Below, piece after piece: positions 3,307-10,776 of a DNA stretch of 21,396 nt. The notes under the pieces are model-generated. The model ran no database searches and was not told the DNA's origin. It worked only from the letters and a program-made list of their open reading frames with translations. The translations under genes were made by a program, and so were the position numbers. The stretch lies in the IMG/VR virus record IMGVR_UViG_2531839486_000009; one strand, 5' to 3'. Source of the DNA: a virus. Taxonomy: Duplodnaviria > Heunggongvirae > Uroviricota > Caudoviricetes. Positions within the stretch are counted from its first letter, which is position 1, and each line of letters starts with the position of its first letter.

Positions 3307-3382
3307 GGCCCTTTAGCTCAGTGGTGAGAGCGAGCGACTCATAATCGCCAGGTCGCTGGTTCAAATCCAGCAAGGGCCACCA
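3307..3382 (+). tRNA. tRNA with CAT anticodon (tRNA-Ile2-like or tRNA-Met)
   Basis: Cloverleaf read by eye: acceptor GGCCCTT/AAGGGCC, D-arm GCTC..GAGC, anticodon loop CTCATAA, T-arm GGTCGCTGGTTCAAATCCAGC, CCA encoded. Resembles E. coli ileX-type tRNA from memory. Confidence 0.85.
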
Positions 3383-3483: not shown

Positions 3484-3560
3484 GCGTTGTTAGCTCAGCC
3501 GGACAGAGCAATTGCCTTCTAAGCAATCGGTCACTGGTTCGAATCCAGTACAGCGCGCCA
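3484..3560 (+). tRNA. tRNA-Arg (anticodon TCT)
   Basis: Acceptor GCGTTGT/ACAGCGC (one G-U pair), D-arm AGCTCAGCCGGACAGAGC, anticodon stem-loop ATTGC-CTTCTAA-GCAAT, T-loop GGTTCGAATCC, CCA encoded. Confidence 0.85.
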
Positions 3561-4024: not shown

Positions 4025-4416
4025 ATACATATCTGGATTATCACCTGTTACGGTAAAAAGTGATTGCTTACTGTTTTTGTGAATGGCATTGCAGCAGCCG
4101 GATAATGTCAGTGCTGGCTGACGGTGTGCTGGTGGCGGGTGTGGTGGTTGTTGCTTTCCCGTTGCTGAAAAAGAAAACGCCAGACTGTTAGCCGGGTATC
4201 AGTTAGCGGGAGAAATTTTTAAATACTTCACAATTCAGGCGGTTGACTGTTGTCTGGTTTGCGGGGAGTTTGTTAAAAGAAACTGGCATGGTGAATCCCC
4301 CTGTGCGGTGGGGCAATCAGCGAGTAGGTATATGGGATAATCGCGGATTCAGGTGCTGGTACTGAATTCACCGGGAGGCACCCGACACCATGCAATGGCA
4401 CATAGCGCCACTCTCC

Positions 4417-4440
4417 AGCCCCTCTCCGGAGGGGCTGTTT
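4417..4440 (+). terminator. GC-rich hairpin with downstream T-rich tract (terminator-like)
   Basis: agcccctc-tccg-gaggggct is a perfect 8-bp stem; followed by gtttatattgatttt. Lies about 35 nt beyond the 3' end of the minus-strand gene 4472..4807. Confidence 0.45.
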
Positions 4441-4471
4441 ATATTGATTTTGTCAGATGTGAGTAAACTCC

Positions 4472-4807
4472 TTATGGACTTTGTTGTTTTAGTCCATAAG
4501 GACATATTTGCAGAGTGCAACGGTTATTAAAGCATTCATTCAATACGTTATCTGTATTTGTAGGGCATTCCTGGCTGTTTTTGATTAAATTCCAGAATGT
4601 TTTATTGAATGGTACTACGTTGTAAATGGTTACAGGTAGCACTTTGTTATTGAGCATGATGCCTGTGTGAGTCAGTGTAAATATACTTTCAGGAGGTAAG
4701 AAAGCATCCGATTGATACCAGATTATTAATTTTATTTTACTCCATATGACTGAAAAAGATATTCCGCATGATGGCTGGATAACTGTATCAATCACAATCC
4801 ACTTCAT
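4472..4807 (-). CDS. hypothetical protein (111 aa), orphan antisense moron gene with Cys-rich C-terminus
   Basis: Minus-strand ORF with a near-ideal RBS (AAGGA, 6-nt spacing, from + strand ctttcctt at 4811-4818) and a plausible AT-rich promoter containing TATACT upstream. C-terminal C-x10-C-x4-C-x4-C cluster. Confidence 0.6.
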
Positions 4808-5782: not shown

Positions 5783-6133
5783 ATGACTCAAAACTATGAA
5801 CTGATTGTGAAAGGGATCCGCAATTTTGAGAATAAAGTTACGGTAACTTTAGCGTTACGGGACAAAAAACGCTTTGACGGTGAAATTTTTGACCTGGACA
5901 TCTCGCTGGACCGTGTTGAAGGTGCCGCGCTGGAGTTTTATGAGGCAGCAGCCAGAATGAGCATCAGACAGGTCTTCCTGGATGTTGCTGCCGGGTTATG
6001 TGAAGGGGATGAGCAGTCGCCGGAAAAGCGCCCCGTAATTTTAGAGGCGCAGAATGTATGGATAACCTACAAAGGAAAGCTACCGGGAAGAATTACTGGT
6101 TCTCTGAAGACTCCTCCGGAATCACAACCTTAA
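5783..6133 (+). CDS. hypothetical protein (116 aa) between holin and endolysin
   Basis: ATG 5783 preceded by GGGGAGAG (7-nt spacing), 4 nt after the holin stop. Predicted soluble, no TM or signal peptide seen; no motif recognised. Confidence 0.6.
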   Translation: MTQNYELIVKGIRNFENKVTVTLALRDKKRFDGEIFDLDISLDRVEGAALEFYEAAARMSIRQVFLDVAAGLCEGDEQSPEKRPVILEAQNVWITYKGKLPGRITGSLKTPPESQP

Positions 6134-7219: not shown

Positions 7220-7513
7220 TTATTGTGAGCAATACACACGCGCTTCCAGTGGAGTATAAATGCCTAAAGTAATAAAACCGAGAAATCCATTTACGAATGT
7301 TTGCTGGGTTTCTGTTTTAACAACATTTTCTGCGCCGCCACAAATTTTGGCTGCATCAACAGTTTTCTCCTGTCCAATTCCCGAAACGAAGAAATGATGG
7401 GTGATGGTTTCCTTTGGTGTTACTGCTGTCGGTTTGTTTCCAACAGTAAACGTCTGTTGAGCACATCCTGTAATAAGCATTGCCAGAGCGGCAGAAAACA
7501 ACATTTTTTTCAT
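7220..7513 (-). CDS. bor: Bor lipoprotein (serum-resistance moron, Iss family)
   Basis: Start at the internal MKKM of tool ORF 7220..7561. Translation MKKMLFSAALAMLITGCAQQTFTV...ETITHHFFVSGIGQEKTVDAAKICGGAENVVKTETQQTFVNGFLGFITLGIYTPLEARVYCSQ is near-identical to lambda Bor as I recall it; lipobox LITGC. Confidence 0.9.
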   Translation of the reverse strand: MKKMLFSAALAMLITGCAQQTFTVGNKPTAVTPKETITHHFFVSGIGQEKTVDAAKICGGAENVVKTETQQTFVNGFLGFITLGIYTPLEARVYCSQ

Positions 7514-7693
7514 CTTATTATCCTGCATTGTTAAAAACGGCAGAATCCTATGTGACAACAATTAAACGATAGTTAAATGGATTGATGAAAATTAAAACTA
7601 TATAGGTGGATGCTCAGCCTATCGGAGGTAGTCAGGATTTGAATGTCAGTCTGTTGTCGGCATTCTGGCAACGCAATTTGGATAAAGCGGGGA

Positions 7694-7816
7694 TTAAAAA
7701 GATAGAGGCGAGCCGGTCAGGTAGAAATGAATCAGGCTCAAAGTGAAGCGGAAAAGGTCTGTGGCACAAGCTGATGCAGCCATAATTACAGCCTGATGAT
7801 TTGTGGAATGAAACAT
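7694..7816 (-). CDS. possible small hydrophobic protein (40 aa)
   Basis: Minus-strand ATG (+ strand cat 7814-7816) preceded by AAGGAGG at 6-nt spacing. Translation MFHSTNHQAVIMAASACATDLFRFTLSLIHFYLTGSPLSF; stop TAA. Confidence 0.3.
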   Translation of the reverse strand: MFHSTNHQAVIMAASACATDLFRFTLSLIHFYLTGSPLSF

Positions 7817-7896
7817 GTTGAACCTCCTTAATTGATGTTATTCGAGTGATGAAGGCATTCTGTCCTTCTATAGTGTCCAGTAAATCAAACAGGAAA

Positions 7897-7918
7897 CTTG
7901 TCCAACGTGTTGGACAAG
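7897..7918. repeat. perfect 10-bp inverted repeat (CTTGTCCAAC-gt-GTTGGACAAG)
   Basis: Seen directly; the arms are exact reverse complements with a 2-nt spacer; no T-tract follows. Confidence 0.9.
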
Positions 7919-8038
7919 CCTCTCCATTAGTGAGTTGTATTGATCACAACTCTACAAAGAATTCATTACTGGGTAGATGAAAATAGTTTCACTATGAATG
8001 GAGGAGGCTATGTCGGTGGCTTCTTCATTGGAGTACAT

Positions 8039-8389
8039 ATGCCCCCACGAATCCCACGCGCCTGCCGTAAGCGTGGATGTGCAGGTACAACCACAGACAG
8101 TTCTGGTTACTGCGATAAACATCGTGGCGAAGGATGGGTACAGCATCAACGCGGACTGAGCCGCCACCAGCGTGGCTATGGCTCGAAATGGGATGCCATA
8201 CGTGCGCGCATACTGAAGCGTGATAATCATCTGTGTCAGAACTGCCTGCGCAATGGGAGAGCCGTTGAAGCCAGAACTGTGGACCACATCATTCCGAAAG
8301 CTCATGGTGGCACGGATGCAGACAGTAACCTGCAGAGTCTGTGCTGGCCCTGTCATAAAGCAAAAACAGCGCGCGAACGCATCAATTGA
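8039..8389 (+). CDS. HNH endonuclease (terminase-associated)
   Basis: ATG 8039 with GGAG RBS; tool ORF opens at 7940. Translation has Cys-rich N-terminus and the HNH core ...VDHIIPKAHGGTDADSNLQSLCWPCHKAKT...; sits directly upstream of terS/terL as in HK97-like cos phages. Confidence 0.85.
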   Translation: MPPRIPRACRKRGCAGTTTDSSGYCDKHRGEGWVQHQRGLSRHQRGYGSKWDAIRARILKRDNHLCQNCLRNGRAVEARTVDHIIPKAHGGTDADSNLQSLCWPCHKAKTARERIN

Positions 8390-9019: not shown

Positions 9020-10776
9020 TGGCAAAAGTGGCTGACGGGATCCGCTACGCCGAACGTGTTGTTGCAGGAGAAATTGTCGCTGGCGAATTTGTCCGTCTGG
9101 CCTGTCAGCGTTTTCTTGATGATCTGAAGTACGGCGAAGAGCGGGGGATTTATTTTAGTGAACCCCGTGCGCAGCACATCCTTAATTTCTACAAATTTGT
9201 GCCCCATGTGAAAGGGGCGCTGGCAGGCCAGCCCATTGAACTGATGGACTGGCATGTATTTATCCTCATTAATATTTTTGGTTTTGTCATTCCGCTGGTG
9301 AATGAAGAGACCGGGGAAGTTGTCATGCGCAGCGATGGCAGCGGACGCCCGGTGATGGTGCGCCGGTTCCGGACGGCGTACAACGAAGTCGCCCGTAAAA
9401 ACGCAAAATCAACCCTGTCATCGGGTATCGGTCTGTATATGACGGGGGCAGATGGTGAAGGTGGTGCTGAGGTGTATTCAGCCGCAACCACGCGTGATCA
9501 GGCCAGAATCGTGTTTGAAGACGCCAAAAATATGGTCAGAAAAGCCCGGTCGACACTCGGGCGGTTGTTTGACTTCAACAAGCTGGCGATTTACCAGGAG
9601 CAGAGCGCATCAAAATTTGAACCGCTTTCCTCGGATGCAAACAACCTGGACGGTCTGAACATCCACTGCGCCATTATTGATGAGCTGCATGCTCATAAAA
9701 CCCGTGACGTGTGGGACGTTCTGGAAACGGCAACCGGTGCCCGTCTGCAGTCTCTGTTATTTGGCATCACCACGGCTGGCTTTAACAAGGAAGGGATTTG
9801 CTACGAGCAGCGCGATTACGCCATTAAGGTATTGCGAGGCTATAACAGCGACGTGGAGGGCGCGGTAAAAGACGACTCCTACTTTGCGATCATTTACACG
9901 CTCGATGAGGGAGATGATCCGTTTGATGAAACGGTCTGGCAGAAAGCGAATCCTGGCCTGGGCATCTGTAAACGCTGGGATGATCTGCGTCGTCTGGCGA
10001 AAAAAGCGAAGGAGCAGGTCTCTGCGCGGGTGAATTTTTTTACCAAACACATGAATGTGTGGGTCACTGCCGAATCTGCCTGGATGGATATGATTAAGTG
10101 GGAGAAGTGCGAATACATTGCTCCACAACATGAGCTGAAAACATATCCCATGTGGGTCGGCGTAGACCTTGCTCATAAGATTGATATCTGTGCGGCGGCA
10201 AAACTCTGGCGAACCGATAACGGACATGTTCATGCTGATTTTAAATTCTGGCTTCCGGAAGGACGGCTGGAGCGATGCTCGCGGCAGCAGGCAGAACTTT
10301 ACCGGAAGTGGGCGGAGATGGATAAGCTCATCCTGACGGATGGTGATGTTATCGATCATGCTCAGATAAAAAGTGACTTACTGGAATGGATTGGCGGTGA
10401 AAACCTCAGGGAACTGGGATTTGACCCGTGGAGCGCAATGCAGTTCAGCCTGGCACTGGCTGAAGAAGGGATACCGCTGGTGGAGGTTCCGCAGACGGTC
10501 CGCAATCTGTCAGAGGCCATGAAGGAAACGGAATCACTGGTTTATGCCGGGCGTTTCCATCACAGCAATCATCCGGTCATGAACTGGATGATGTCTAACG
10601 TTACGGTAAAACCGGACAAAAACGACAACATCTTCCCGAATAAATCCACGCCTGAAGCCAAAATCGACGGCCCTGTTGCACTTTTTACGGCCATGAGCCG
10701 CTTTCTGGTAAATGGCGGGGGCGTGAATGACTTTCTGTCCACGCTTGATCCTGATGAGGACCTGTTAATTCTGTGA
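9019..10776 (+). CDS. terminase large subunit
   Basis: 585 aa; Walker-A-like ...ARKNAKST..., conserved acidic nuclease-domain residues; position between terS and portal. Confidence 0.9.
   Translation: MAKVADGIRYAERVVAGEIVAGEFVRLACQRFLDDLKYGEERGIYFSEPRAQHILNFYKFVPHVKGALAGQPIELMDWHVFILINIFGFVIPLVNEETGEVVMRSDGSGRPVMVRRFRTAYNEVARKNAKSTLSSGIGLYMTGADGEGGAEVYSAATTRDQARIVFEDAKNMVRKARSTLGRLFDFNKLAIYQEQSASKFEPLSSDANNLDGLNIHCAIIDELHAHKTRDVWDVLETATGARLQSLLFGITTAGFNKEGICYEQRDYAIKVLRGYNSDVEGAVKDDSYFAIIYTLDEGDDPFDETVWQKANPGLGICKRWDDLRRLAKKAKEQVSARVNFFTKHMNVWVTAESAWMDMIKWEKCEYIAPQHELKTYPMWVGVDLAHKIDICAAAKLWRTDNGHVHADFKFWLPEGRLERCSRQQAELYRKWAEMDKLILTDGDVIDHAQIKSDLLEWIGGENLRELGFDPWSAMQFSLALAEEGIPLVEVPQTVRNLSEAMKETESLVYAGRFHHSNHPVMNWMMSNVTVKPDKNDNIFPNKSTPEAKIDGPVALFTAMSRFLVNGGGVNDFLSTLDPDEDLLIL

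Follow-up and report, generated by a model that had tools for sequence, protein, structure and literature searches.

The window analyzed here is the whole 21,396-nucleotide (nt) stretch of IMG/VR virus record IMGVR_UViG_2531839486_000009, which holds the late region of a lambdoid/HK97-like prophage of Escherichia coli and Shigella. The genes of this region follow the order holin, YdfR, lysozyme, Rz/Rz1, bor, HNH, TerS, TerL, and portal. Between the bor/iss lipoprotein gene and the HNH endonuclease gene, on the strand opposite the late genes, lies a 40-codon open reading frame (ORF) preceded by a Shine-Dalgarno (SD) sequence, by two promoter sequences of the T7 group (P1 and P2), and by a hairpin situated between the two promoters. 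Together these features form a compact cassette, the promoters of which match those of two families of podophages, and we suggest that it may be addressed to the RNA polymerase of an infecting phage.

The 40-codon ORF and its conservation

On the minus strand, the start region of the ORF reads TTAAGGAGGTTCAACATG, with AAGGAGG at 7829-7823, the spacer TTCAAC at 7822-7817, and ATG at 7816-7814. The 40 sense codons opened by the ATG at 7816 encode exactly MFHSTNHQAVIMAASACATDLFRFTLSLIHFYLTGSPLSF and are closed by TAA at 7696-7694. The coordinates and translation of the original prediction, which placed AAGGAGG exactly 6 nt before the minus-strand ATG of a 40-codon ORF between bor and HNH, were thus confirmed. 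Its argument that such a ribosome-binding site would be improbable by chance is weak when taken alone. The motif AAGGAGG-N4-9-ATG occurs once in the window against an expectation of 0.22, and 21 of 100 shuffled windows contain at least one match, so that the motif is no evidence by itself. It is the comparative evidence, namely, the retention of frame, ATG, and SD together with a synonymous bias in codons 21 to 41, that raises the ORF above chance.

Homologous DNA was gathered with two anchors outside the coding region, one being the SD region and the other a stretch downstream of the stop codon. Frame conservation in related prophages, by which the prediction could be checked, proved complete, with the ATG and the 40-codon frame kept in 85/85 usable loci (43/43 distinct sequences). 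The SD reads AAGGAGG in 41 of the 43 distinct sequences and AAGGAAG in the remaining 2. Codons 21 to 41 are the least variable stretch of the 440-nt region (11/63 sites variable) and hold nine synonymous variants (TAA to TGA included) versus three rare nonsynonymous ones; in the five other frames over the same codons, the synonymous share ranges from 2/12 to 7/12. Under different assumed transition biases, the binomial P value of this bias runs from 5e-4 to 4e-3, and the range is about 2e-4 to 4e-3 when the count of 9/12 is considered along with the 11/15 obtained by adding Klebsiella. A tblastn match was found in Klebsiella phage Kp4864-1, where AAGGAG and a 6-nt spacer precede a 38-codon ORF, MLKISLLSTIVNHKITFAVIYFLLSLIHFYLTGSPLSF. 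The last 16 residues of this ORF are those of the window peptide despite four synonymous differences, and its N terminus is unrelated.

The 3' half of the ORF overlaps, in the convergent direction, the remnant of a LysC-type o-spanin gene, the conserved C terminus of which is recognizable against Shigella locus L130. This gene is intact in Shigella phage SfIV (gp53), in Kp4864-1, and in Klebsiella prophages (Pfam LysC). The overlapping spanin frame was considered as the cause of the 3'-half conservation and rejected. Changes that are silent in the small ORF hit second codon positions when read in the spanin frame and are nonsynonymous there, the tail of the spanin differs in both sequence and length from one payload to another, and the LysC profile stops about 11 to 14 residues before the spanin stop codon, so that the tail lies outside it. 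Because the silent changes of the small ORF alter the spanin frame, and because the spanin tail varies with the payload, selection acts on the small ORF. Since SD, ATG, length, and stop are all conserved and the C-terminal half is under purifying selection, the ORF is very probably a real, translated small gene. It is annotated in one GenBank phage record (URC10065.1) and was left unannotated by the NCBI pipeline (PGAP) in the copies examined. The copy in DETEC-P169 is 100% identical.

The peptide was modeled by AlphaFold2 as one helix spanning residues 3 to 34, with a predicted local distance difference test (pLDDT) score of 83. A profile search of 1.8 billion representatives returned only the peptide's own small family and no distant homologues. 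The possibility that the peptide is a captured podophage gene was rejected, as tblastn and blastn similarity is limited to the promoters and the hairpin.

Promoters and hairpin upstream of the ORF

The tandem promoters P1 and P2 share one strand and are about 60 nt apart, hence within a few hundred bases, and a scan of the window with seven T7-group consensus sequences identified them as the sole such sites (Table 1). The 21-mer ATCAATACAACTCACTAATGG (7944-7924) at P1 is identical to promoters repeated in T7-like contigs of 39 to 40 kb. It also occurs exactly in the Berlinvirus/T7-like phages 285P (upstream of gene 4.3), FE44 (where the copy carries the annotation "phage-specific promoter"), BSP161, PYPS50, and ErnstBeyeler. 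P2 has three mismatches to the SP6 consensus, a level matched in 0 of 100 window shuffles, and fits the K1E-type consensus without a mismatch. When IMG/VR was scanned for ATTTANNNGACACTATAGAAG, it yielded podophage contigs of about 44 kb with several copies each, and many of the copies have the window's CTG at -12 to -10. The exact identity of P2 to promoters of these Vectrevirus-type contigs extends over 26 nt (7888-7863) and then ends. In GenBank, P2 matches Vectrevirus phages (K1E, K1-5, LL11, AAPEc6, and many more) at four to seven places per genome; a promoter of K1-5 itself matches the P2 region over 25 nt, and the exact 21-mer is present in 4 of the 10 K1-5 promoters. Among 5426 complete E. 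coli genomes, P2 was found in 628 and P1 in 627 (about 12%), always with cassette flanks.

The hairpin between the two promoters is likewise shared with podophages. Taken over 11 alleles, the paired cells amount to 93.7% and three pairs show compensatory changes, which was reached in 0 of 500 shuffles; the G-U and U-G pairs are possible solely on the minus-strand RNA. Its core, GGGCTTGTCCAACACGTTGGACA, is present in at least six copies in Klebsiella phage Kp7, one of them directly before a promoter that follows the RNA polymerase gene, and occurs also in K1-5 at 9570 and in the 44,349-bp SP6-like contig L193. Hence, the hairpin is a second mimicked signal, which may serve either as a 5' stabilizer or as a processing or termination site. 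Its reading as the intrinsic terminator of an upstream minus-strand small RNA (sRNA) was rejected as the principal one, because the Klebsiella hairpin is without a U-tract and because the hairpin copies a repeated SP6-like element that sometimes sits right before a promoter. Partial termination or processing at the hairpin may occur. As a separate observation, the primase/helicase gene of L193 has a promoter at its end that drives a 53-amino-acid (aa), strongly hydrophobic ORF (9427-9588, minus strand), which is followed by the hairpin at 9393-9414; this small membrane-protein unit resembles the prophage cassette in layout and has the same hairpin.

Downstream of P2, the leader hardly varies from allele to allele. 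Its folding z score is +1.17 (less structured than shuffles), and in the centroid structure the SD is free of pairing.

Beyond the promoters and the hairpin, no flanking DNA or protein similarity to podophages was found. As the similarity is confined to these elements, the cassette reflects mimicry of signals and not a transferred gene. No gene for a cognate single-subunit RNA polymerase lies within the window, in which the sole ORF of more than 600 aa encodes the tape-measure protein, and the prophage uses a Q-type antiterminator. It is highly probable, judging from the promoter identities, that P1 and P2 are addressed to the RNA polymerases of the phages whose promoters they match, although recognition itself is something we infer.

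Table 1. Positions of the cassette elements and neighboring genes in the window
Feature	Positions	Strand	Remark
P1, T7-group (Berlinvirus-type) promoter TCAATACAACTCACTAATGGAGA	7921-7943	-	Predicted +1 is G 7925
13-bp hairpin GAGGCTTGTCCAA-CACG-TTGGACAAGTTTC	7893-7922	-	Starts at +4 of the P1 transcript, between P1 and P2
P2, SP6-group (Vectrevirus K1E/K1-5-type) promoter ATTTACTGGACACTATAGAAGGA	7863-7885	-	Predicted +1 is G 7868
P2-transcript leader, 52 nt	7817-7868	-	5-bp 5' hairpin (7868-7851); SD and AUG otherwise open
SD sequence AAGGAGG	7823-7829	-	6 nt 5' of the ATG
40-codon ORF (payload) MFHSTNHQAVIMAASACATDLFRFTLSLIHFYLTGSPLSF	7694-7816	-	Frame intact in all homologous loci
Remnant 3' end of LysC-type o-spanin gene, 46 codons	7606-7746	+	Convergent overlap with the last 17 ORF codons
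bor/iss lipoprotein gene	7220-7516	-	Pfam Lambda_Bor, 3.8e-30
HNH endonuclease gene	8036-8389	+	Pfam HNH, 1.9e-16

Cassette variants across hosts and the surrounding genes

The cassette is found in other hosts with other signals and other payloads. In the SfIV-type allele, the SP6-type promoter TACTTGATTTAGGTGACACTtTAGAAGGACAG matches a promoter of an SP6-like 43,984-bp contig at 31 of 32 nt. Klebsiella prophages keep the order of P1-like promoter, hairpin, promoter, leader, AAGGAG(G), and small ORF, and their post-hairpin promoter, AATAGTGGCGAGTATAGAA, is that of 5 of the 10 promoter copies of Klebsiella phage Kp7 (Molineuxvirinae), a phage that itself has a unit of hairpin plus promoter. The 16-mer of the Klebsiella P1 was found in prophages only and not in podophages. 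As payload, the Klebsiella cassettes carry one or another of three unrelated hydrophobic peptides (37 to 38 aa). Over the other cassettes as a whole, the unrelated hydrophobic peptides in this slot are 37 to 39 aa long. In L242, a non-E. coli prophage, a near-consensus promoter of the T7/T3 type, ATTAACGACTCACTATAGGGGGA, is followed by a hairpin, an SP6-type promoter, AAGGAG, and a 39-aa ORF, and a second hairpin-promoter unit lies about 690 nt upstream of the first. These identities, exact for the promoters of two podophage families and swapped in Klebsiella, suggest that a phage-specific trigger is encoded in the cassette, provided that the polymerases recognize the copies as we infer. Of all the evidence, this host-matched tracking of podophage promoters argues most strongly for a function.

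Several loci depart from the simple layout. Klebsiella cassettes (Kp4864-1, L166 2330-2420; L298-L305) contain extra promoter-like motifs, TTTAATGTTACACGAGTAGGAAC and AAGTTACACAATAGAAA, between the Kp7-type promoter and the SD. Of these, AAGTTACACAATAGAAA matches SP6 at 14 of 21 positions, and no phage match was found for either motif; these may be further promoters that serve podophages not yet sampled. Two cassette units stand in tandem between Rz/Rz1 and TerS in L242 (8575-9470) and in L207, and unit B of both consists of an SP6 GGG-type promoter followed only by a nonhydrophobic 20-aa ORF and a truncated LysC remnant. In L021 (8620-9280), the cassette has been tandemly duplicated along with the first ~20 to 50 nt of the HNH gene. 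At a contig end, in L216, an E. coli-type cassette is broken by unrelated DNA 4 nt past the P2 start site, which is possibly an insertion or a rearrangement breakpoint.

We also considered whether the module travels with the HNH gene. This was rejected, as relatives of the HNH gene occur in 40 other species without the module and the Klebsiella copy is linked to the spanin gene. Because of those HNH relatives without the module, the cassette appears as a discrete, mobile unit at the lysis/packaging junction.

The genes around the cassette bear on its history and on what a transcript from it would cover. The ORF runs against the late strand and converges with the spanin gene, and it is not cotranscribed with the endolysin gene as a holin, antiholin, or spanin gene would be. 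The next gene on the strand of the cassette is bor, the homologue of which is named iss (increased serum survival lipoprotein) by RefSeq in sister prophages and which is absent from SfIV-type and Klebsiella cassettes; read-through from P1 and P2 would cotranscribe bor in this prophage only. Positions 7560-7628 are lambda-like bor upstream DNA, and homology to SfIV begins at 7627; the spanin remnant is what stayed behind as the original spanins gave way to bor and a lambda-type Rz/Rz1 pair. On the other side of the cassette, the HNH frame stays open for 32 codons upstream of the annotated ATG (7940-8035, plus strand); the stretch begins with a TTG at 7940 and covers P1 as well as some of the cassette. 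The extension is probably meaningless, as the annotated start has a GGAG of its own.

Other features were recorded farther away. Between the Q-antiterminator/tRNA region and holin, positions 4257-4446 (plus strand) match the Rfam family STnc100 (RF02076) with 123 bits (E = 6e-27), and this match is probably part of the late-operon leader of the prophage. Two prophage tRNA genes (Rfam) lie at 3307-3379 and 3484-3557 (plus strand); their equivalents in an O25b:H4 E. coli copy are annotated as tRNA-Ile and tRNA-Arg. A 111-codon ORF at 4472-4807 (minus strand) corresponds in location and length to iraM, which is annotated in sister prophages as an anti-adapter gene, and a YdfR-family ORF at 5783-6133 (plus strand) is inserted between holin and lysozyme. 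In the sequence type 131 (ST131) copy examined, sitABCD is absent near the cassette.

Proposed function and alternative readings

T7-group polymerases are made early in infection, are highly promoter specific, ignore most host terminators, and are active after the host RNA polymerase has been inactivated. Given these traits, a resident gene behind such a promoter would be silent in the lysogen and strongly expressed minutes into infection. We propose, with a probability of about 0.55 for the explanation in full, that a superinfecting phage transcribes the cassette with its own RNA polymerase and that the resulting peptide, acting at the inner membrane, aborts or cripples the infection. The ORF would be the payload of a compact temperate-phage cassette meant to be read by another, virulent phage through its RNA polymerase, with a layout that runs, opposite the late genes, from a Berlinvirus-type promoter through an SP6-like hairpin, a Vectrevirus-type promoter, and a short leader to an SD and a gene of about 40 codons. 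In the undisturbed lysogen, the cassette would be essentially silent. Upon infection by a phage of either family, the single-subunit RNA polymerase of the invader would recognize the mimicked promoter and transcribe the cassette, and the peptide would be made at a high level; the consensus SD and the open leader suit translation uncoupled from a fast polymerase. The peptide may then act at the inner membrane, by depolarization, permeabilization, or premature holin-like action, and the infection would be aborted or crippled, with sibling lysogens protected. As a broader and more tentative idea, to which we give somewhat less than an even chance, the cassette would be a natural form of "tripwire" immunity, in which promoters and a hairpin of Autographiviridae have been copied before a tiny peptide gene and the polymerase of the invader itself expresses the aborting effector.

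A number of observations weigh against the proposed explanation. The best 19-residue Kyte-Doolittle mean is 1.40 for the window peptide and 0.90 for the SfIV allele, both under the usual transmembrane level, and membrane insertion is not assured because the window allele is only moderately hydrophobic. Thus, of the single hydrophobic helix originally predicted, the helix was recovered, and the hydrophobicity holds only in part. The same prediction named a small membrane protein or toxin-like peptide. A membrane-active or toxin-like role is plausible, because Klebsiella prophages carry clearly hydrophobic 37- to 38-aa peptides in the same slot (hydropathy, 1.83 to 2.33). Searches of Pfam, PHROGs, and PADLOC gave no family for the peptide and no match to a known defense family. 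Codons 2 to 20 contain 25 nonsynonymous versus 3 synonymous variants, and a few database proteins are frameshifted. The promoters vary as well. P1 has an A-to-G change at -6 in 18 of 85 loci, which has a decayed look, and minor alleles of P2 (e.g., C to G at -5, or ATG...GAGGG) occur in about 18 of 85 loci, with no match to ACAGTATAGG or to ATG...GAGGG in any podophage contig scanned. Of the two copies in L021, the upstream one is dead (P2 ACAGTATAGG, SD ACGGAGC, start ACG) and the downstream one is intact. Finally, a weak sigma-70 candidate (8/12; TTTACT-16-CAGAAT, 7884-7857) overlaps P2. Some basal expression in the lysogen is possible given this candidate and given that the promoter scan was blind to the promoter of bor.

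The promoters might serve infecting polymerases for a purpose other than a defensive peptide, such as satellite-like exploitation, expression of bor/iss, or an effect at the RNA level (an antisense transcript across the lysis genes, a polymerase sink, or a transcription-replication conflict). Promoter identities and host tracking alone do not define the purpose of the transcript, and we regard these possibilities, taken jointly, as unlikely in view of what follows the promoters. A consensus SD and an ORF of 37 to 40 codons always come first after them, and purifying selection on the ORF overrides the overlapping spanin frame, although unit B of L242 and L207 is followed only by its nonhydrophobic 20-aa ORF. 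Transcripts from P1 and P2 would run into bor and then antisense to Rz, endolysin, and holin, but bor is missing from the SfIV and Klebsiella versions. A chromosome has only one or two copies of the promoters, too few to titrate a polymerase. The host prophage comes with a full set of packaging and lysis genes of its own, and the transcripts point away from the packaging genes.

Expression from the lysogen, as put forward in the original prediction, would make the ORF a small membrane protein or type I-like toxin, akin to a bor-like moron with a host promoter and perhaps under antisense control. We consider this improbable. The ORF does share the strand of bor, a strong SD, and a helical product, and the weak sigma-70 candidate at 7884-7857 could supply a promoter. 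However, no sigma-70 promoter for the ORF was found at the 9/12 threshold, in a scan that also missed the known bor promoter, and expression from the lysogen is so far unsupported. An antisense RNA fared no better. At gathering or E-value thresholds, Rfam gave no RNA family in 7500-8100, and the opposite strand has no promoter/terminator pair and no sRNA-like unit. The sole antisense transcription over the ORF is read-through of the late operon, which would give antisense RNA during induction. The likeness to type I toxins (Hok/Sok, TisB/IstR-1, ZorO/OrzO, Ldr, and Ibs) lies in tiny, helical, hydrophobic peptides that are harmful if freely made and often carried on mobile elements, and Hok/Sok excludes T4. 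In contrast to these systems, in which an antisense sRNA gene accompanies an inert mRNA with a sequestered SD, the leader here leaves the SD open, no antitoxin RNA was found, control would come from the promoter specificity of a foreign polymerase, and no sequence relationship of the peptide to these toxins was found. Nor does a lysogen-expressed toxin account for the two exact promoters of heterologous phages and the phage hairpin, all of which track the podophages of the host.

That the locus is a functionless relic, a recombination scar with T7- or SP6-like phages in which ORF and SD are fortuitous or a podophage leftover, is very improbable: the decayed promoter alleles, the dead duplicate unit, the frameshifted database entries, and the poorly conserved N-terminal half would fit it, but podophage DNA and protein similarity ends at the signals themselves, the frame is intact in all distinct sequences with a synonymous bias, the hairpin shows compensatory changes, the architecture has been rebuilt with Klebsiella-specific promoters and different payloads, and the cassette is kept in about 12% of complete E. 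coli genomes.

Tandem promoters of the T7 group have reportedly been met in genome scans before. In 2006, Chen and Schneider reportedly searched enterobacterial genomes in silico for T7-group promoters and found two or three tandem promoters in prophage-like islands. The islands are said to be without a polymerase gene, and the clusters, over 150 to 620 bp, would reportedly transcribe two to five phage-related proteins, the function of which was not known. Like these islands, the cassette has tandem, one-strand T7-group promoters in enterobacterial prophage-like DNA without a cognate polymerase gene, and in both cases the evidence is computational only. It differs from the islands as reportedly described in that its promoters are about 60 nt apart and stand before an unannotated 40-codon ORF. 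The locus probably belongs to this class. Relative to the islands as reported, what is added here appears to be the payload ORF and its selection, the exact Vectrevirus and Berlinvirus identities, the mimicked hairpin, the replacement of promoters in Klebsiella, and the interchangeable peptides.

Other known systems share single elements with the proposed mechanism. Engineered phage-triggered suicide cassettes also place a promoter fired by the invader before a harmful gene; Djordjevic et al. reportedly fused a middle promoter of lactococcal phage phi31 to a lethal restriction cassette in 1997. Unlike those constructs, the cassette described here is natural and widespread, has promoters for two phage families, and carries a 40-aa payload. 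Its layout of promoter, 5' hairpin, AAGGAG, and ATG is much like that of the T7 phi10 leader in pET-type expression vectors. In satellite/helper cross talk (P4 late promoters via P2 Ogr, phage-inducible chromosomal islands [PICI], and PICI-like elements [PLE]), a resident is likewise silent until an incoming phage supplies a factor; here, the trigger would be a whole heterologous RNA polymerase, and the responder is a single small gene in a full-size prophage with no sign of mobilization. Prophage morons (bor/iss, lom, Rex, and sie) occupy the same lysis/packaging niche, on the strand opposite the late operon and with modular presence, but they have a host-type promoter and a terminator and are lysogen expressed, whereas the cassette has phage-polymerase promoters instead. 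Full-text literature searches returned no experimental description of a host or prophage gene driven by a promoter of a phage polymerase.

If the proposed explanation is correct, the cassette would represent a new sensing principle in defense, a promoter trap fired by the polymerase of the attacker precisely while host transcription is being shut off. What the sensor of such a tripwire reads would be the specificity with which a viral enzyme binds DNA, and not a viral protein, a nucleic acid, or damage, and no antitoxin would be needed. At ~250 bp, the cassette would be cheap enough to escape every gene-based defense finder. A gap in annotation is apparent in any case, in that RefSeq leaves out, in hundreds of genomes, a 40-codon gene that is conserved and under selection. 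The polymerase-less T7-like promoters of enterobacterial chromosomes would become a testable matter, with a payload now defined and with phages available for the purpose; ErnstBeyeler, the recorded host of which is K-12, carries the P1 21-mer, and K1-5, K1E, and other Vectrevirus phages carry P2. Further, Vectrevirus and T7-like phages are common candidates for phage therapy against extraintestinal pathogenic E. coli (ExPEC) and Klebsiella, and the carriers of the cassette include the O25b:H4 E. coli isolate examined. If tripwire immunity of this kind does exist, its signals would be exchanged between E. coli, Klebsiella, and other hosts, having been copied from locally circulating Autographiviridae.

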